From the NCBI RefSeq assembly GCF_004010195.1, contig NC_057757.1, positions 3,159,256 through 3,179,255 on the forward strand: a stretch of 20,000 nucleotides of DNA. Reading direction: 5' to 3'. Shown here piece after piece: positions 6,270 through 20,000 of the stretch. Origin of the DNA: Chiloscyllium plagiosum. Lineage: Eukaryota. The notes under the pieces were generated by a model. The model was not told the origin of the DNA and did no database searches. It worked only from the letters and a program-made list of their open reading frames with translations. Position 1 is the stretch's first letter. Each line of letters opens with the position of its first letter. The translations under genes were made by a program, and so were the position numbers.

Positions 6270-6866
6270 TATAGGAGTGAGGAGCAGCAAGAGGCCATTC
6301 AGCCCCTTGAGCCTGCTGTGCCATTCAATAAGATCATGGCTGATGTGATATATATGCATGACTGCATACTCGCCCCCAATAACCTTTCACCCTCTTGTTT
6401 ATCAAGAACCTACCTGCCCCTATCTTAAGAAATATTCAAAGACTCTGCTTCCACAGGATGAGAGTTCCACAGAGTCATGGCTCTCTGAGCGAAAAGAATT
6501 CTCTTCAACTCAGTCTTAAATGGATGGAGCTTTATTTTCAAACAGTAACCCTTAGTTCTTGACGCCCCTCTATGAAACAACACTTTCACCACATCAACCC
6601 TGTCAAGACACCTCGGGATCTTATTTATTTCAGTCAAGCCACCCCTTACTATTTCAAATTCCAATGAATGCAAGCCCAGTCTGTCCAACTTTCCTCACAA
6701 GGGAACCCATCCATTCAAGGGGTTAGTCTGGTAAACCCTCTCTGAACTGCTTTTCATGAATTTGCAACCTTCCTTAAATAAGGAGACCTGTACTCTCTAT
6801 AATTGCTGCATACCCACTCTATTTTTGTACTCAATCCCCTCCACAAACAGTAGCATTCTGTTAGCA
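6270..6866 (-). mobile_element. CR1 LINE 3' portion; its upstream part lies at 12630-13026
   Basis: ORF 6425..6688 (DRLGLHSLEF...SRTKGYCLKI...LWNS) and reversed tail ggccattcagccccttgagcctgct. Confidence 0.85.
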
Positions 6867-6910
6867 ACTGTGATGCTCTATTAGAAACAGTAGCATTTCA
6901 TTTAAAATTA

Positions 6911-7822
6911 CCGTATATACTTATGTAAACGTTGAATTTTTTAGGCTATTTTTAAAGGTTCAATTTATAGGGTCGACTATTACACGGGCACTAGTTTTGA
7001 GGGGCTGAAATTCATGCTGCAGTTCGAAATACCATATTATTAGCAGAAGTCGATTTGATCGCTCAACTAATCTCGGGTAAAGAAGAAAAACACAACAAAT
7101 TATGTTAAAAGCCAGAAGAAGGTAATTACCAAATGAAAGCGAGAGTAACAAGAATGAATTACTGGTAGGAAATTTTATTTTTACATACCGGTACGAAAAT
7201 TTAACATGTCAAAGATTTATTGAAATCCTGCAAAGTCACACTGTTCAACATCATCATTGCCTGGTATAGTGTCACACTTAAAATGAAACATTTATTCAAT
7301 TCTTCAATTTTCCTCCCATTTACTCTCGGATGTAATGAACCTCAGCAACATTAACAAATTTGTCAAAGAACTAAAGATATATGTAGCTAATATATCTCGC
7401 TTTTAGTCAGATATAATGGCACAATTAAAATAATTAACTTTTTAATGATATTAACTTTTGGAAGTATAGCGAACAAAGGATAATAAGCTCTGATGGACTT
7501 AGTATCAGTCTGAATGAATGAATGAATGAATCAAAACATTCTGTGGTAAACCAAGTGGGCTAAGTAGACTCATGAATGACTGAATAGAGACGCAATACAG
7601 TAAACAAAGAGCGATGAGTAGAGATACTGGTATGAATGAATGAATGCAATTTTGTTTAAGTGGGTTAATGGGAACATGCAATTTCCTTTTTAAGAGGTTT
7701 ATAATGTGATATAGTCGGGTCAACTTTTACACAAGCTGCTATTTATGGAAAATACAAGATTTCTTGGCCAAAGTAAGGGGTCGACTTTTACATGAGGTTG
7801 ACTTTGACACAAGTATACATGG
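6911..7822. mobile_element. Non-autonomous Tc1/mariner-superfamily (pogo-like) DNA transposon / MITE
   Basis: TA then CCGTATATACTTATGTAAACGTTGA at 6911. The right end reverse-complements to CCATGTATACTTGTGTCAAAGTCAA (18/25 identical). Subterminal gggtcgact(a/t)ttaca repeats at both ends. AT-rich interior with (GAAT)n. The right flank is TC rather than TA. Confidence 0.7.
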
Positions 7823-7824
7823 TC

Positions 7825-7970
7825 GTAACCTTCTAATAGAAATAATAACATTCTATTAGAAACAGTAACATTTCATTAGAAACAAGAACATTTCAATAGA
7901 ATTAGTACCCTTCTATTAGAAATAATAACATTATCAGAAAGAGTGACATTATATTAGAAACAATAACATT
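7825..7970. repeat. 20-bp AT-rich minisatellite (TTCTATTAGAAACAGTAACA), largest block; other pieces at about 6845-6900, 8600-8660, 8990-9030 and 12551-12650
   Basis: Units start at 7831, 7851, 7871, 7891 and 7911, an exact 20-bp period. Confidence 0.9.
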
Positions 7971-8600
7971 CATAGAGCCATAGAGATGTACAGCACGGAA
8001 ACAGACCCTTCAGTCCAACCCGTCCATGCTGACCAGGTATCCCAACCCAATCTAGTCCCACCTGTCAGCACCTGGCCCATATCCCTCCAAATCCATCCTA
8101 TTCATATACCCGTCCAGATGCCTTTTAAATGTTGCAATTATACTAGCCTCCACCACTTCCTCTGGCAGCTCATTCCATACACGTGCCACCCTCTGCGTAA
8201 AAACGTTGCCTCTTAGGTCTCTTTTATATCTTTCCCCTCTCACCCTAAATCTATGCCCTCTAGTTCTAGACTCCCCCACCCCAGGGAAAAGACTTTGTCT
8301 ATCTATAAAAGGTCAGTTAGACTCGAAACGTCAGCTCTTTTCTCTCCTTACAGATGCTGCCAGACCTGCTGAGATTTTCCAGCATTTTCTTTTTTTGTTT
8401 CAGATTCCAGCATCTGCAGTAATTTGCTTTTATACTTTGTCTACTTATCCTATCCATACTCCTCATGATTTTACAAACTTCTATAAGGTCACCCCTCAGC
8501 CTCCGACATTCCAGGGAATACAGCCCTAGCCTATTCAACCTTTCCCTATAGCTCAAATCCTCCAACCCTGGCAACTTCCTCATAAATCTTTTCTGAACCA
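7971..8600 (-). mobile_element. HER1/CR1 LINE 3' end, with an insertion at 8302-8433
   Basis: ORFs 8317..8601 (VQKRFMRKLPGLEDLSYRERLNRLGLYSLECRRLRGDLIEVCKI) and 8052..8279 (ESRTRGHRFRVRG...VWNELPEEVV). Reversed tail catagagatgtacagcacggaaacagaccctt. Confidence 0.95.
8302..8433 (+). mobile_element. Short Penelope-like pLTR/3' fragment with target-site duplication
   Basis: ACTTTGTCTA is duplicated at 8292-8301 and 8434-8443. The body ctcgaaacgtcagctc...cagatgctgccagacctgctgag...tccagcatctgcagt is also seen at 14549-14646. Confidence 0.7.
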
Positions 8601-8664
8601 TTCTACTAGAAACAGTAATAATCTATTAGAAATAATGACATTATCTTCGAAACAGTAACTTTTT

Positions 8665-8980
8665 TTTAGATTACTTACAGTGTGGAAATGGACCCTTCGG
8701 CCCAACAAGTCCACACTAACCCGCCGAAGCGCAACCCACCCAGACCCATTCCCCTACATTTACCCCTTCACCAAACACTACAGGCAATTTAGCACAGCCA
8801 ATTCACCTCACCTGCACATTTTTGGACTGTGGGAGGAAACCGGAGGACCCAGAGGAAACCCACGCAGACACAGGGAGCAACGTGCAACCTCCACACAGTC
8901 AGTCGCCTGAGGCGGGAATTGAACCCGGGTCTCTAGCGCTGTGAGGCAGCAGTGCTAACCACTGTGCCACCGTGCTGCCC
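8665..8980 (-). mobile_element. HE1-like SINE, full length
   Basis: Reversed A box (ccactgtgcca), reversed B box (ggaattgaacc), body, and tail (tagattacttacagtgtggaaa). Confidence 0.93.
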
Positions 8981-9753
8981 ACAAATAATAATTAGTAACA
9001 TTCTATTTGAAACAATAACAATCTGTTATAACTAGTGAGCTACTTCAAGGGATGACAGTGTACAGGCAATGCCAAACGTTTAAGAAATGCACGGGAGGAC
9101 AGCAATAACTGCTTATTCCTGTCCAGCACAAAAGTAAAATGAGTAAGAGTGCCAATCCATGTCTGACAAAGGAAATTAGAGGTAGTATCTGATCCAAGGA
9201 AGAAGCATACAGATTGGCCAAGAAAAACAATAGGTCTCAGGATTGGGAACAGTTTAGAATTCAGCAAAGAAGGATCAAGGGATTGATGAAGAAGGAGAAA
9301 ATACAATACAAAAATAAGCTTGAGGGAGCATGAAGACTGGCATCTCTATCAGTATGTGAAGAGAAAGAGATGGGGACAAAGAAATGACTGAGCAATTAAA
9401 TATATATTTTGGTTCTGTCTTCACAAAAGGGAACACAAATCAGATACCAGAAATGTTGGAGAACATAAGATTTAGTGAGAGGTAGGAACTGAGGGAGGTC
9501 AATATTAGTAGAGAAATGGTGTGGGAAAATATGATGAGATTGAAAGTAGATAAATCCCCAAGTCCTGATAATCTACATCTCAGAAAGTGGCTCTCAAAAT
9601 AACGGATGCATTGGTGGTCATTTTCCAGGATTCGATAGACTCCGGAATAGTCCCTGTAGATTGGAAGATAGCTAATGTCATTCCAATATTTAAAAAGGGA
9701 GGTAGAAAGAAACCAGGTAATTATAGACCAGTGTTATGAAGTTGAAGGCTAAT

Positions 9754-9950
9754 ATAAAGTTAAAAATCACACAACACCAGGTTATAATCCAACAGGTTTA
9801 ATTGGAAGCACACTAGCTTTCGGAGCTCCGCTCCTTCATCAGGCGGCGCTCCGAAAGCTAGTGTGCTTCCAATTAAACCTGGTGGATTATAACCTGGTGT
9901 TGTGTGATTTTTAACTTTGTACAACTCAGTCCAACACCGACATCTCCAAA
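9754..9950. mobile_element. Penelope-like element remnant: inverted pLTR pair
   Basis: 71-bp arms at 9756-9826 and 9848-9918 with one mismatch. Flanked by TGAAGGCTAAT (9743-9753) and TGAAGACTAAT (9951-9961). Contains a hammerhead core. Confidence 0.8.
9811..9845 (-). ncRNA. Minimal type I hammerhead ribozyme motif
   Basis: Minus strand reads CGC CUGAUGA A GGAGC-GGA-GCUCC GAAA GCUA GUG: conserved core boxes, 5-bp helix II, palindromic AGCU helix III, 3-bp helix I with one G-U pair. Confidence 0.7.
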
Positions 9951-10265
9951 TGAAGACTAATGCTGTACCTTTAAGAGAAGGTGAAAGCTGTTTTGCACTG
10001 AGAGCTTGCAGGCACCTGACATGTAACTGACTAGCAGTCTCAGAGTGTACTGGAAAATTAAAAATATGCAACATTTGGCTGTGAAACAAAGACATGAGTT
10101 TTGGTTGCTTTGTTTACAACCATTCAATTTTAACCAATCAGTTTAAATTATGCCCCAGGATACTAAAACCCAATCAATTTTACATTTATTGTTTTGCCAA
10201 CATTGAACCAATGAGACAATCCAATCCAATGTTTGGGGTATAAAGAAACAGACATTTTGAGAGTT

Positions 10266-10595
10266 TGATTAGATTAGATTCCCTACAATGTTGAAACAGG
10301 TCCTTCGGCCCAACAAGTCCACACCAACCCTCCGAAGAGCGACCCACCCAGACCCATTCCCCTACATTTACCACTGACTAATGCACCTAATACTACGGAT
10401 AATTTAGCATGGCCAATTCACCTAACCTGCACATCTTCGGACTGTGGGAGGAAACCAGAGCACCTTGAGGAAACCCATGCAGACACGGGGAGAATATGCA
10501 AACTCCACACAGACAGTCACCCGAGGCTGGATTCAAACCTGGGACCTTGGTGCTGTGAGGCAGCAGTGCTAACCACTGAGCCACCGTGGCGCCCC
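10266..10595 (-). mobile_element. HE1-like SINE, full length, inside the LTR
   Basis: (GATTA)n tail at 10267-10280, body, reversed B box ggattcaaacc and reversed A box ccactgagcca. Confidence 0.93.
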
Positions 10596-10599
10596 TAAA

Positions 10600-10701
10600 A
10601 TCAGATTCTACCATGGTGGGATTTGAACCCAAGTCCCCAAAACATGCGCCGAGTTTCTGGATTAATAGCCCAGGAATAATACCACTAGGCCATACTGCCC
10701 T
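10600..10701 (-). mobile_element. 5' head of a second tRNA-derived SINE family
   Basis: Minus strand: TGGCCTAGTGG (A box) ... ttaatccagaaac ... GGTTCAAATCC (B box) caccatgg. Confidence 0.7.
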
Positions 10702-12629
10702 ATACATTTGTGAGAGAGTTAGTGAGAGAGAACAACTGCCATTGTCAGAGTAACTGCCAGCAACACACTCTCTATCAAAGGTAACTTTTTCATATGAAAC
10801 ATCTTAGCAACAAAAGACCAAAGACAACCCAGACAGCAAGAGGAAGACATACACCGGAGACGACAGCTGCTGTCTGGTTTTGAAATTAAGTTGATGTAAT
10901 TTTAGTATGAGTGGTTATTGGAACAGTATGTAGTTATAGAAGTGGAGGCAGATAACAAGCAGTTAAGAGAAAGGAAGCTTAGAGTTGTGAATAGTTATTG
11001 TTCAATGTTCACTTTTAGAGTTAAAGAATAAATTAATATTTTTTATTTAAATAGTGGAATTTGGGAGTTCTCTGTCACTCAGACTTTAACAGATTATGAG
11101 GCGAGGTGAGCTTTTCTGGGTGTTTGGTTTAATTAGCAGAGAGTTAACCGCCATGTCGTAACACTCGTAAGTCTAAAATCGGTGGTGAGGAAAATTCTTG
11201 AATCCATTATCAAGGACCTTATGGTGAAGCATATAGAAAGCAGTGGCAAGGTCAGACAGAGTCAGTGTAGATTTATGAAGGGGAAATCATGCTTGACAAA
11301 TCTGTTGGAAGTCTATGAAGATGTAATGAGTAGAGTTGAAAGGGAGAGCTAGTCAATGTGGTACATTTGGACTTTCAGAAAACGTTTGACAAAGTCCCAC
11401 ATAAGAGACTGCTGTGCAAGATTACAGTGTATGGGATTGGGGAAAGTCTACTGAGATAGCTAGGAAACTGGTTGGTAGAGGGGAAAAGACAAAGAGTAGG
11501 AATTTATGGATCCTTTTCAAATCAGCAGGCACTAACTAGTGGGGTGCCACAGGGATCAGTGCTTGGACCCCAACTATTCACAATATGTAGTAATGATTTG
11601 GATGAGGGAACAAAATGCAACATGTCAAAGCTTGCAGATGATACCAAGTTGGGTGGGAGGGTGAACTGTGACAAGGATGCAGAGATCCTTCAGCACGATC
11701 TGGATAGGTTGGGTGAGTGGGCAAGCCATTGGCAGATGCAGTATAATTTGGATAAATGTGAGGTTATTCACTTTGAAAGCAGAAACAAGAGGGCGGATTA
11801 GTACCTGAATGGCTGCAAATTGGGAGGGGGAATGCGCAGAGGGACCTGGGTGTCCTTGTGCACCAGTTGCTGAAGGTGAGCATGCAGGAGAGCAGGTGGT
11901 AAAGAAGGCAAATGGCATATAGGCCTTCATTGCGAGAGGATTCGAGTACAGAAGCAGGGATGTGTTGCTGCAGTTATACAGGGGCTTAGTAAGGCCACAC
12001 CTAGAATATTGAGAGCAGTTTTGGTCTCCTTTTCTGAGGAAGGATGCTCTTGCTCCCAAGGGAGGGCAGTGAAGGTTTCCCAGGCTGATTCCAGGGGATG
12101 GCAGAACTGAAGTATGAGGAGAGATTGACTAGGTTAGGATTGTTTTCACTGGAGTTCAGACAAGTGAGGGGGAATCTCATATTAGAAAATTCTAACAGGG
12201 CTATATAGGGAGGATGTTCCCAATGGTGGGTGTGTCCAGTACCGGGGGTCACAGTTTGAGGATTCAGGGTAGACCATTTAGGACAAAGAAGAGGAGACAT
12301 TTCTTCACCAACAGAGCGGCGAGCCTGTGGAATTCATTACCACAGGAAGGAGTTGGTGCCAAAACATTCAACACATTCAAGAGGAGGCTAGATGTAACAT
12401 TTGGGGAGAATGGGATCAAAGGTTATGGGGAGAAAGCAGGATTAGACTCTTGAATTGGACGATCAGCCATGATTGTGATGAATGCTGAAGCAGGCTTGAA
12501 GGGCTGAACGGCCTCCGTCTGCTCCTTTCTTCAATGTCTCTATGTTTCTAAATGGTGACATGTTATTAGAAATATTGACATTCCATTAGAATTAGTAACA
12601 TTCTATTGGAATCAGCAACATTCTATTAG

Positions 12630-13026
12630 AAACAGTGGCATTCTGTTAGCTTCACTAATTACTTTTAGAATATCAGTGTTACGCAGAGCATGCATCCGTA
12701 ATAGATACTGCCAAACCTCTGATCTTGACAGCACTGCAAATCTCCCACTGGTCAGACAATCGGTTTCTCTTTTATTCTTCCTGCCAAAATGGACAACTTG
12801 GTTTGCCACATCTGTGCCCACACGCACAGTCCGTGATGCTCCTTTCTTAGCCTCCTCACGTCCACATCACGATCTAACGTTCCTGCCTATCTTTGCGCCT
12901 ACCGTTTATATGCAAAGTGCAAAAGGCTGAAGCGCTTGTCCTGGATCCTGTGGCACACCACTCATTGCATCTTGCCAACCAGAAAATGACCCACTTATAT
13001 CAACTTGCTGCTTCGTGTTTACCAAC
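12630..13026 (-). mobile_element. Decayed CR1 RT fragment, continuation of 6270-6866
   Basis: Repeats the break-point sequence (aacagt(a/g)gcattctgttagc), then ttattcttcctgccaaaatggacaa (VHFGRKNK) and gatcctgtggcacaccactc (SGVPQ). Confidence 0.75.
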
Positions 13027-13692
13027 AGGTAACTAAAATTCGGTGTAACTGGGTCATAACTGGTCCACTTCTGCTCCAAAGTCCTAAGTCCTGATCATTT
13101 ACTTATTAATGGCTTAGATGATCGCATAGAGAGAGAGACAACTATCAAACTTGTTAATGTCTCAATGATTAGTGACATTTTAGCCAGTGTAGAATGTTCA
13201 GAGCAATTAACTGAGTGTATTTGGAGGGGTGCAATGTGTATTCATTGTGTAGAAAAGATGGCATGCACAGAAAAATTCTAACTCTACCATAGATGGAATC
13301 CATGTCAAACATAATATCATGACCACACAAGGGTGTATCAACCCTTTAAGACCATAAGATGTAGGACTGAACTGCCCCATCCGCGATTCTTTCCTTCTGT
13401 GAGCTTCCGAGAAAGAGTTGCGAGCTGTGAGGAATGCGTGCTTGTTGAGCTTCCTTACTTGGCTGCAATTGTCCACGTTTCATACTGATTCACGAACAGG
13501 CCACTGAGACCTCAGGCTCCAACAGCAGGTGTCTTCACCTTACGCATCAGCTCAATACTACTCCCTGCACGTCCCGTGAGTTTGCCAAAGGTGTGTGGCT
13601 CAGAGAGAAACTTGCATCTGGTGCCCTTGCAGACGGCAGAGGTTGCATGCTTGTATGGAGTCTTGGTGAGTTGCCGCAGTACATCATACTGT

Positions 13693-14726: not shown

Positions 14727-15565
14727 ATGTGTGTCTGTGTGTACACATGCAAGCGTGTTTGTGTGTATCTCTCTCTGTTACTGTATCTCTCTGTTACTGT
14801 GTGTGTATATGTGTGTGTCTGCTACTGTGTGTTTGTGTCTGTCTCTCTGTTGCTATGTGCGTGTCTGTGTTATTGTGTGTGCGCCTGTGTGTGTCTATGT
14901 TACTGTGTCTGTCTCTCTGCTACTGTGTATATCTGTAACTGTGTGTGTGTGTGTGCGCCTGTGTGTGTCTCTGTCACTGTGTGCATCTGTTACTCTGTGT
15001 GTGTATATCTCTGTAACTGTGTGTGTCTCTCTCTGTTGCTGTGGTATCTCTGTAACTGTGTGTGTGTCTCTCTGTTATTGTGTATGTGTCTCTGTTACTG
15101 TGTGTATGTTCATGTATGTGGCTCTGTTATTATGTGTGTGTCNNNNNNNNNNNNNNNNNNNNNNNNNNNNNNNNNNNNNNNNNTGTATCTGAGTGTCTCT
15201 GTTACTGTGTGTGTCTCAGTGTCTCTCTGACTGTGTCTGTGGGTGTGTGTATGTGTGTCTCTGTCACTATGTGCGTGTATGTGTCTGTATCTCTATGTTA
15301 TTCTGTGTGTGTATCTGAGTGTCTCTGTTACTGTGTGTGTCTCAGTGTCTCTCTGACTGTGTCTGTGGGTGTGTGTATGTGTGTCTCTGTCACTATGTGC
15401 GTGTATGTGTCTGTATCTCTATGTTATTCTGTGTGTGTCTGAGTGTCTCTCTGTTAGCCTGTGTTTGTCTGTGTCTCCACGTTATGCTCTTTGTGCATGT
15501 TGCTCTGTTATTTTGAGTACGTGCGTGTGTGTGATTCCCTGTTAGTGTGTGTGTATGTGTGCGGG
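14727..15565. repeat. TG/TC-rich compound microsatellite with a 41-N assembly gap (15143-15183)
   Basis: Recurrent ctctgttactgtgtgtgt units. A 126-bp direct duplication starts at 15184 and again at 15310. Confidence 0.95.
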
Positions 15566-16503: not shown

Positions 16504-16669
16504 TAGATTGGATCAACTGGATTACTGCTGGATGATGGTGCCTCCTGCGTCGTAGATCACTGGGCCACGTCATGTCAGGAGGGGTGCATCTGTTCCACAG
16601 ATTTGGCCCATTTCCGAACATCTAGTCCAGAAAATTGCTGACCTGTGTTGCCGTGTACTATTTGACACT

Positions 16670-19600
16670 TGTTTCCACTAGGATTTCACTGGCTCACTCC
16701 AGGGTACACTGAGGAATGATGACTCACATTGGAATTTCACAGATTCTCACTGGGGTAAACAGGTTCCCACTGGTATGCATTTGTTCTGACTGGGATTTCA
16801 CTGGCTCACACTGGGATGCGCGGACTCAGAGTGGGATATGCTGACTGTCACTAGGGCACACTGACTCCCACTGAGATTTTGCTGGCCCACACTGGGATAT
16901 ACTGATCCACACTGGAGTGCACGATTACACTGGCTCACACTGGAGTATGATACATGCTGGGATACACAGACTCACATTGGGCACACCAACTCACACTGGA
17001 GTATACTGGCTCACACTGGGGTACACTAGTTCACACTGGGGTACACTGGCTCAACCTGGGGTACATTGACCCACACTGGTGAACACTGACCCATACAAGA
17101 ATACACCGACACACACTGGGGTACACTGACCTACAGTGGGACACATTGACCAGGACTAGTGTACACTGCCCCCCACTGAGGTACACTGATCCACACTGGT
17201 ACTCATTGACCCACACTGGGGAATACTGACCCACACTGGGGTACACTGATCCACACTGGTACTCACTGATCCACACTGGGGAATACTGACCCACACTGGG
17301 GAACACTGACCCACACTGGGAAACACTGACTCACACTGGGGTGCACTGACCCACACTGGGGAGCACTGACCCACACTGGGGAGCACTGACACACACTGGA
17401 ACACACTGACCCACACTGGGGTACACTGACCCACACTGGGGTACACTGACCCACACTGGGGAACACTGACCCACACTGGGAAACACTGACTCACACTGGG
17501 GTGCACTGACCCACACTGGGGAGCACTGACCCACACTGGGGAGCACTGACACACACTGGAACACACTGACCCACACTGGGGTACACTGACCCACACTGGG
17601 ATGCACTGACCCACACTATGAAACACTGACTCACACTGGGGTGCACTGACCCACACTGGGGAACATTGACACACACTGGAACACACTGACCCACACTGGG
17701 GCACACTGACCCACACTGGGGTGCACTGATCCCCACTGGAACACACTAACCCACACTGGGGTGCACTGACCCACACTGGGGTGCACTGATCCCCACTGGA
17801 ACACACTGACCCACACTGGGGTACACTGACCCACACTGGGGTGCACTGACCCACACTGGGGTGCACTGACCCACACTGGGGAACACTGATCCCCACTGGA
17901 ACACACTGACCCACACTGGGGTACACTGACCCACACTGGGGTGCACTGACACACTGGGATACACTAACCCACACTGGCGTGCACTGACACACACTGGGGT
18001 GCACTGACCCACACTGGGAAACACTAACTCACACTGGGGAATACTGACCCACACTGGGGAATACTGACCCACACTGGGGAACACAGAGCCATGCAGAAGT
18101 GCACTGTCACACACTAGGACACATTGACACACACTGGGGTGCATTGACCCACACTGGGGACACACTGGCCCACACTGGAGTACACTGACCCACACTGGGG
18201 ACACACTGACCCACACTGGGGACACACTGACCCAGACTGGGGACACACTGACCCACTCTGGGTTACACTGACCCACACTGGGGACACACTGACCCACACT
18301 GGGGTACACTGACCCACACTGGGGACATACTGACCCACACTGAGGAGACACTGACCCACACTGGGGACACACTGACCCACACTGGGGTACACTTACCCAC
18401 ACTGGGGACACACTGACCCACACTGGGGAGACACTGACCCACACTGGGGAACACTGACCCACACTGGGGGACACTGACCCACACTGGGGAACACTGACCC
18501 ACACTGGGGAACACTGACCCACACTGTGGGCATACTGACCCACACTGGGGAACACTGACCCACACTGGGGAACACTGACCCACACTGTGGGCACACTGAC
18601 CCACACGGGTGTGACTGACATACACTGGGGTACATTGATCAGACTGAGGTACACTGACATACACTGGGGAACACTGATCCACACTGGGGAACACTGACCC
18701 ACACTGGGGAACACTGACCCACACTGGGGACACACTGACCCACACTGGGGACACACTGACCCACACTGGGGACACACTGACCCACACTGGAGCGCACTGA
18801 CACACACAGGGGACACACTGACCCACACTGGGGACACACTGACCCACACTGGGGTACATTGACCCACACTGTGGGCACACTGACCCACACTGGGGTACAC
18901 TGACCCACACTGGGGACACACTGACCCACACTGGGGACACACTGACTCACACTGGGGAACACTGACCCACACTGGGATACACTGACCCACACTGGGGAAC
19001 ATTGACCCACACTGGGGTACACTGACCCACACTGGGGAAGATTGACCCACACTGGGGACACACTGACCCACACTGGGGAACATTGACCCACACTGGGGTA
19101 CACTGACCCACACTGGGGAACACTGACCCACACTTGGGACACACTGACCCACACTGTGGACCACTGACCCACACTGGGGAACACTGACCCACACTGGGGT
19201 ACACTGACCCACACTGGGGACACACTGACCGACACTGGGGACACACTGACCCACACTGTGGACCACTGACCCACACTGGGATACAGTAACCCACACTGGG
19301 GAACATTGACCAGACTGAGGTACACTGACCCACACTGGGGAACACTGATCCACACAGGGGTACACTGACCCACACTGGTGACGCACTGACCCACACTGGG
19401 GAACACTGACCCACACTGGGGAACACTGACCCACACTGGTGACACACTGACCCAGACTGGGGACACACTGACCCACACTGGGGACACACTGACCCATACT
19501 GTGGAACACTGACCCACACTGGGGTACACTGACCCACACTGGGGTACACTGACCCGGACTGGAGTGCACTGACCCGGACTGTGGGCACACTGACCCACAC

Positions 19601-20000
19601 TGGGGACACACTGACACACACTGGGGACACACTGACCCACACTGGGGAACACTGACCCACACTGTGGGCACACTGACCCACACTGTGATGACTAACATAC
19701 ACTGGGGTACACTGGCACACACTGGGGAACACTGACCCACACTGGGGACACACTGACCCACGCTGGGGACACACTGACCCACGCTGGACACACACTGACC
19801 CACGCTGGGGACACACTGACCCACGCTGGACACACACTGACCCACGCTGGGGACACACTGACCCACGCTGGACACACACTGACCCACGCTGGGGACACAC
19901 TGACCCACGCTGGACACACACTGACCCACGCTGGGGACACACTGACCCACGCTGGACACACACTGACCCACGCTGGGGACACACTGACCCACACTGGGGA
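16670..20000. repeat. 20/21-bp minisatellite, consensus about CCACACTGGGG(T/A)ACACTGAC, running off the window
   Basis: Degenerate at 16670-17200, strict 20-bp period at 17200-17950, mixed 20/21-bp units after that, alternating 21-bp dimers from about 19760. Confidence 0.98.

Follow-up and report, generated by a model that had tools for sequence, protein, structure and literature searches.

Penelope-like elements (PLEs) and the hammerhead ribozymes that they carry are the closest described systems. In the available text of PMC3846280, insertions have a head-to-head inverted pLTR, a target site duplication (TSD) of 8–10 bp, a 31-bp tail on one arm and palindromes at the junctions, and self-priming is proposed. 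The accessible part of PMC8557442 gives an inverted, 5′-truncated copy with a 30–40 bp tail as typical and treats the function of the hammerhead as unclear. For the anole enzyme, the sections at hand of PMC11167929 report that it cuts and extends both strands, that two internal start sites bound the tail, that the ribozyme needs protein and that hammerhead mutants leave in vitro insertion unaffected. The features of minimal hammerheads are set out in PMC4209133, in whose available portion monomers are inactive and dual motifs lie on opposite strands 100–700 bp apart. The excerpted preprint bioRxiv 10.64898/2026.07.22.740005 further reports that tandem retrozymes are depleted in Xenopus introns and that retrozymes are direct tandem repeats. 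How Penelope-like inverted copies form is left open in the accessible text of these papers, and the literature that we searched, outside which most subscription papers lie, yielded no account of PLE hammerheads caged by inverted arms.

Here we analysed a stretch of 20,000 nt of the Chiloscyllium plagiosum genome (the window), in which a preliminary description had placed a hammerhead ribozyme caged inside a near-perfect hairpin. We consider it highly probable that the insert consists of two truncated tail ends, joined head to head, from a very abundant and likely Penelope-like repeat, and that it is a likely dead by-product of one insertion event.

Results

The insert comprises 197 bases (9754–9950), and its net footprint with the duplication is 208 nt. 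Its 71-nt arms (9756–9826 and 9848–9918) were found to be reverse-complementary with one mismatch (9792/9882), as originally described. The loop, given before as 21 nt, proved to be 11 nt because pairing continues inward past the mismatch 9827/9847, with 9828–9831 against 9843–9846, so that the full arms are 79 nt long with 96% identity (3 mismatches in 79). The hairpin fold had a z-score of −19.6, and none of 200 shuffles was as stable. Rfam matches to MIR845 and MIR847 were rejected as reflecting a generic hairpin, with MIR845 scoring 52 bits against a family gathering threshold of 81.

An 11-bp TSD had also been described; its length held, but it proved imperfect. The copies at 9743–9753 and 9951–9961 (plus strand) are identical at 10 of 11 bases, a match reached by 21 of 3,000 random pairs from the window, and no exact direct repeat of at least 7 nt was found flanking the insert. 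Since the target is itself a repeat, the length is supported independently by insert-free copies: three of the four rows listed for copies starting at 9748–9749 showed a net gap of 208 nt (197 + 11), and the fourth showed 213.

Between the duplications, the left arm (9754–9843, minus strand) appears to be a 5′-truncated, tailless terminal-repeat end in which both the complete hammerhead core and a poly(A) signal are found, and family ends with varied flanks pile up at its border (9754–9759). Judged by the sequence check and by comparison with the homologous contigs L001 and L002 described below, the right arm (9843–9920, plus strand) is a terminal-repeat end truncated inside helix II, without CUGAUGA, and it is the antisense 'cage' for a minus-strand transcript. 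The two meet at 9843–9846, where the window letters, compared with the family loose-end consensus behind 9843, show that the left arm, if continued in its native form, would share 3 of 4 bases with the beginning of the right arm. A tail of about 30 nt (9921–9950, plus strand) is present on the right arm only, being unmirrored in the left arm and followed by a second family terminus at 9951; it carries bases that are in the minority in the family at 9924, 9926 and 9940. Both arms share the same minority base at 9787/9887, where about 90% of the family depth has the other base, which points to one template or source copy for both. Decay shows in the 3 mismatches between the arms, the one in the duplication and the minority bases of the tail. 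The insert is likely a genuine stub of a Penelope-like insertion, ordinary in kind and decaying.

The surroundings consist of SINE and LINE relics plus satellites. Some 20 nt in from its edge, a host repeat of about 1.4 kb (9732–11163, plus strand) contains the insert; this repeat is likely a solo LTR, judging by its TG...CA ends, five CCAAT boxes, TATAAA at 10239 and AATAAA at 11027, with multicopy depth at 9959–10160. A SINE occupies about 10270–10590 of this repeat, and its 4-nt flanking duplication has decayed (2 of 4). The repeat in turn interrupts a decayed LINE reverse-transcriptase region (9300–9731, plus strand), which we take to be CR1-like and whose reading stops at ...NYRP and resumes as LVSLKSVV... 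at 11164, with an RVT_1 match at 11460–11798 (E 6.5e-11). The locus is thus nested at three levels, with the fold-back stub and the SINE in a likely solo LTR that sits in a LINE RT relic.

A candidate minus-strand host gene, suggested earlier, was not found: Pfam searches of 150 of 166 frames gave RVT_1 and one weak sub-threshold match, the frames being stop-to-stop, at least 45 aa long and outside satellites, a scan that short exons could escape and that left out 16 mostly SINE-like frames. A fragment at 13350–13690 (minus strand) resembles a LINE RT end, presumably of RTE type, and may be what was taken for that gene. Elsewhere in the window, an AT-rich segment (6905–7820) has ends resembling the inverted termini of a DNA transposon, which we assume to be of Tc1/pogo type. 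Short arrays of 20-nt units stand beside LINE or SINE ends (6840–6907, 7800–7985, 8585–8682, 8985–9037 and 12530–12662), a long 20/21-nt satellite with strong strand skew fills 16650–20000, a 53-nt tandem array lies at 760–1330, and a gap of 41 N at 15143–15183.

Contig sets X1 and X3 (organism A) and X11 (organism B) were aligned on 9560–10160 at 88% likeness. The family is clearly huge: summed contig depth on the arms was about 1e7, against 16–29 for contigs of unique flank, a figure that is not a copy number. Depth in X1 fell from 10.1M (9770–9790) to 1.7M (9812–9832) and 0.9M (9833–9853), which suggests that the majority of arms end short of the core, with the likeness cut-off contributing to the fall. 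Family ends with unrelated flanks piled up at 9754–9759 and at 9951, about 30 nt apart in element terms, and these two termini indicate a Penelope tail.

The 15 joint rows listed (of 294) contained 2 insert-free targets and 13 different fold-back junctions of other copies. In these listed junctions, left ends ranged over 9786–9843 and right starts over 9850–9899; the right arm started past the whole ribozyme in 12 of the 13, and three with a left arm reaching 9840–9843 are uncaged. None of the 13 cages a complete core, a count from which window-like junctions drop out because they align straight through. A caged, complete core would result from one of 12 listed table rows (9843 to 9853, with 40 letters between), and a similar hinge is spanned, with 9 differences, by X3 record 21. 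For the insert itself, the left junction was recovered from X3 with 1 difference over 221 nt and from X11 with 6 over 215 nt; the right junction may be represented by X11 record 10, with 8 differences over 90 nt. The left junction thus occurs in a second individual and in organism B, suggesting that the insert has persisted.

The minus strand from 9845 to 9811 reads as it had been given, CGC-CUGAUGA-A-GGAGC(GGA)GCUCC-GAAA-GCUA-GUG, a minimal type I hammerhead motif whose cleavage is predicted. Helix I pairs 9845–9843 with 9813–9811 (3 bp, including one G.U made by the junction); CUGAUGA occupies 9842–9836, followed by an extra A, helix II (9834–9830 with 9826–9822, 5 bp), GAAA and palindromic AGCU. 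The conserved core, helix II, extra base, short helix I and palindromic helix III of a minimal type I form are therefore all present, and a descriptor of this form matched once in the window (core at 9842, minus strand) and in 1 of 500 shuffles. The sequence agrees with a cut predicted after A9814 (9814|9813), and the plus-strand arm lacks CUGAUGA as described. Rfam hammerhead families gave no match at E ≤ 5; these models are not known to detect minimal forms. The helix I strand CGC is present in the window and is not native to the family, which continues T-G past 9843, that is CAC; the window letters come from the other arm, leaving the G.U pair.

Among the difference rows listed, the helix II loop (9827–9829) varies across the family while the stem is mostly kept, and 9822 varies in 7–15%. 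With the GGA loop variant, 9822–9829 becomes self-complementary over 8 nt, and for this stretch cofolding predicted a competing intermolecular duplex of −27 kcal/mol; its loop base is a 2–3% minority in the family, yet the form is found in L001 and L002. By a nearest-neighbour estimate, free of tertiary and Mg2+ terms, the double-hammerhead dimer lay about 3 kcal/mol above two free monomers in the window and native forms alike. The motif is thus predicted to be barely foldable even without the antisense arm.

Exact scans for the core gave no match in viral contigs or prokaryote genomes and two in metagenomes, the contigs L001 and L002. L001 969–1001 and L002 1333–1365 are identical to window 9811–9843 (33/33 nt), with the exact match limited to the core; both have the native helix I 5′ strand CAC before it, then AATAAA and a loosely similar end. 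The L002 core lies about 750 nt downstream of a same-strand ORF in which a CxxxCxxC linker accompanies a domain of GIY-YIG type (Atlas 0.97, with 31–34% of cluster members annotated GIY-YIG, Pfam without a match). At its start (1–109), L002 repeats its 3′ region (983–1091) in inverted orientation, and L001 has its core region head to head with an RT fragment (RVT_1 1.5e-5, score under the Pfam cut-off) and a junction (374–385) at a 6-nt palindrome; neither junction falls inside the ribozyme. These contigs are probably Penelope-like fragments from another host, sampled in marine metagenomes, and are homologues, not proof for the window family. Searches of the window with their proteins by tblastn returned nothing significant, and no Penelope ORF was found in the window. 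The identical 33-nt core beside diverged flanks suggests strong constraint on the core across hosts.

The anatomy of the insert matches what the available text of PMC3846280 and PMC8557442 describes, which supports a Penelope-like origin. With the comparison to L001 and L002, it also favours the minimal, dimer-type hammerhead and inverted terminal repeat that had been proposed.

To dissect the effect of the antisense arm, we folded transcripts in silico. The predictions bore out that this arm would prevent the ribozyme fold in a minus-strand transcript: the cost of enforcing helices I and II with an open core was 3.3 kcal/mol for 9845–9800 and 30–37 kcal/mol with the long arm, and as the chain grows the hairpin is also predicted to win co-transcriptionally once helix II has been made. 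Whichever strand is transcribed, the antisense arm precedes its partner, a consequence of the head-to-head arrangement. CUGAUGA had been said to be left in the loop, which is so in part: in the predicted minus-strand RNA fold, core C3 and U4 are paired and the loop is GAUGAA. The short construct proposed earlier (9850–9800) is not uncaged either, as it keeps 8 nt of the antisense arm, and the probability of helix II drops from 0.91 to 0.20. By its geometry, any RNA that reads across the insert is predicted to form a long duplex in which the ribozyme fold and the poly(A) signal are both blocked.

That signal is ATTAAA, followed by a GU-rich tract (9797–9802, minus strand; mirrored at 9872–9877 on the plus strand). 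We aligned 1,864 reads on 9560–10160 from X21, a 3′-biased poly(A) single-cell run of which 2% was read. Only 10 of the 1,864 were 99% alike and none fell on the flank 9560–9727, so these reads report on the family and not on the locus. Poly(T) loose ends were seen in 359 reads before 9788 and in 391 before 9782, at distances of 14 and 20 nt from the ATTAAA start at 9802, and 117 reads had an A-rich end behind 9951; all these counts may stem from few loci or duplicates, and genomic A-tracts are a possible contributor. It seems that polyadenylation works from a signal within the terminal repeat (9782–9802 minus, mirror 9872–9892), one that the hairpin buries, and the hexamer has a predicted unpaired probability of about 0.002 in both transcripts.

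Furthermore, 871 of the poly(A)-library reads extended past 9843 into native upstream sequence through the core. Lengths of 72 + 56 + 23, set against a read length of 150 nt, imply that most of them also have the poly(T) ends, so that one read spans the poly(A) site, the cut site and the core. Depth was steady across the cut site (1107 against 1139), and no pile of read starts or ends was seen there among the X21 family reads. Apparently, then, uncut and uncaged family transcripts exist; cleaved molecules would be too short to see. Some reads carried helix II changes (9822 in 167 of 1,142), and the reads through the core, too, may stem from few loci or duplicates. Loose ends at 9811 were rejected as cleavage, since they are best read as a 2-nt deletion variant.

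Discussion

The insert could have arisen from two cDNAs. The element's enzyme would nick both target strands 11 nt apart, and with element RNA as template, cDNA synthesis would be primed at each nick, beginning at the tail end (9950) for one strand and, for the other, at an internal site (about 9754) some 30 nt inward. Both cDNAs would stop after 90–108 nt, at the hammerhead, and their 3′ ends would anneal via the 3-of-4 overlap at 9843–9846, with fill-in to follow. We modestly favour this route among the mechanisms, one that the accessible text of the cited papers demonstrates for no element. It seems unlikely, while still deserving serious weight, that the same by-product came from a single nascent strand that folded back on the palindrome of helix II and primed itself, perhaps with an antisense template (Arkhipova et al. 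2013). The hinge does lie inside helix II, the native left-arm end (9842–9846) could pair with 9828–9832 through three Watson–Crick and two G.T pairs, the L001 junction sits at a 6-nt palindrome, and self-priming is inferred from junction palindromes in the available part of PMC3846280. However, a single fold-back from the left start cannot yield an element-derived 30-nt tail on the right arm only, and an insert that ends at both family termini within a short TSD is more simply explained by two primed strands. We give almost no credence to a spurious fold-back created during assembly or sequencing: such errors can produce long palindromes, and none of the listed contigs spans the whole insert, but the arms differ at 3 of 79 positions, the TSD and tail bound the insert, and the X3 and X11 contigs cited above pass from flank into insert at the left junction.

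The preliminary description had held that inversion silences a ribozyme that would otherwise cut host pre-mRNA, and preferential retention of caged copies would fit with that. The predicted caging of 30–37 kcal/mol, winning co-transcriptionally with the antisense arm made first in either direction, is consistent with it, as are the left junction common to organisms A and B and, in the excerpted preprint (bioRxiv 10.64898/2026.07.22.740005), the depletion of tandem retrozymes from Xenopus introns. We nevertheless find it very improbable, because minimal monomers show no cleavage and dimers little in the accessible part of PMC4209133, the anole hammerhead needs protein according to the sections available of PMC11167929, helix I here has 3 bp with a G.U and the dimer costs +3 kcal/mol, the 871 poly(A)-library reads cross the core at steady depth, none of the 13 listed junctions cages a complete core, and no host exon was found in the frames scanned. 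A functional meaning of the caging is thus unsupported, the motif being predicted to be barely foldable, its relatives inactive as monomers or in need of the element's protein, the listed junctions of other copies scattered and for the most part lacking the core or leaving it uncaged, and neither a host gene nor a locus transcript having been found. We rate just as low the idea that the hairpin is a mobile non-autonomous unit, retrozyme- or MITE-like, copied whole; the very high family depth and the X3 contig with a similar hinge (record 21) would suit it, but junctions vary from copy to copy, and retrozymes are by definition direct tandem repeats with a hammerhead per unit. Collectively, caging is likely an ordinary by-product of insertion and not a built-in switch, and selection need not be invoked.

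The single locus, a decayed stub in nested repeats, matters little. The stub population records both RT start sites and both stop points, and could test how Penelope-like elements make inverted copies. Very speculatively, self-masking of the hammerhead and of a working poly(A) signal might let fold-back stubs accumulate in introns where single arms are purged, with RT pausing at the hammerhead setting the hinge; we think this improbable. If true, such self-masking as tolerance in genes would be a simple rule for one retroelement reaching very high copy number.

Compared with the EN+ Penelope-like insertion unit as it appears in the available text of PMC3846280 and PMC8557442, the insert is alike in its inverted, 5′-truncated head-to-head copy, its junction palindrome and its tail of about 30 nt on one arm, with a TSD of 11 here and 8–10 in rotifers. 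It differs in that both copies are cut to about 100 nt, and hence lack an ORF, and in that the junction lies inside the hammerhead. Relative to metazoan PLE minimal hammerheads (Cervera and de la Pena 2014, PMC4209133, as far as accessible), the predicted motif shares CUGAUGA, the extra base before helix II, the G10.1-C11.1 pair, a short helix I and palindromic 15.2-16.2, whereas here helix II has 5 bp, helix I has 3 bp with a junction-made G.U, and the core is on one arm only.

For PAc (Poseidon, Anolis carolinensis; Frangieh et al. 2024, PMC11167929), the part at hand describes a tail that is delimited by two RT start sites and lies a short way downstream of the hammerhead, and extension of both target strands, which the present reading shares; inverted junctions are not demonstrated there for PAc. 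L002, the only ORF-linked homologue found, has the CxxxCxxC linker that the accessible text of PMC8557442 gives as a Neptune/Nematis trait, not a Poseidon one. Finally, the non-LTR retrozymes of the excerpted preprint (bioRxiv 10.64898/2026.07.22.740005) are likewise non-coding PLE-derived sequence with a type I hammerhead; those are direct tandem repeats able to give dimers, whereas the insert here has its two units inverted, and the window contains a single core.
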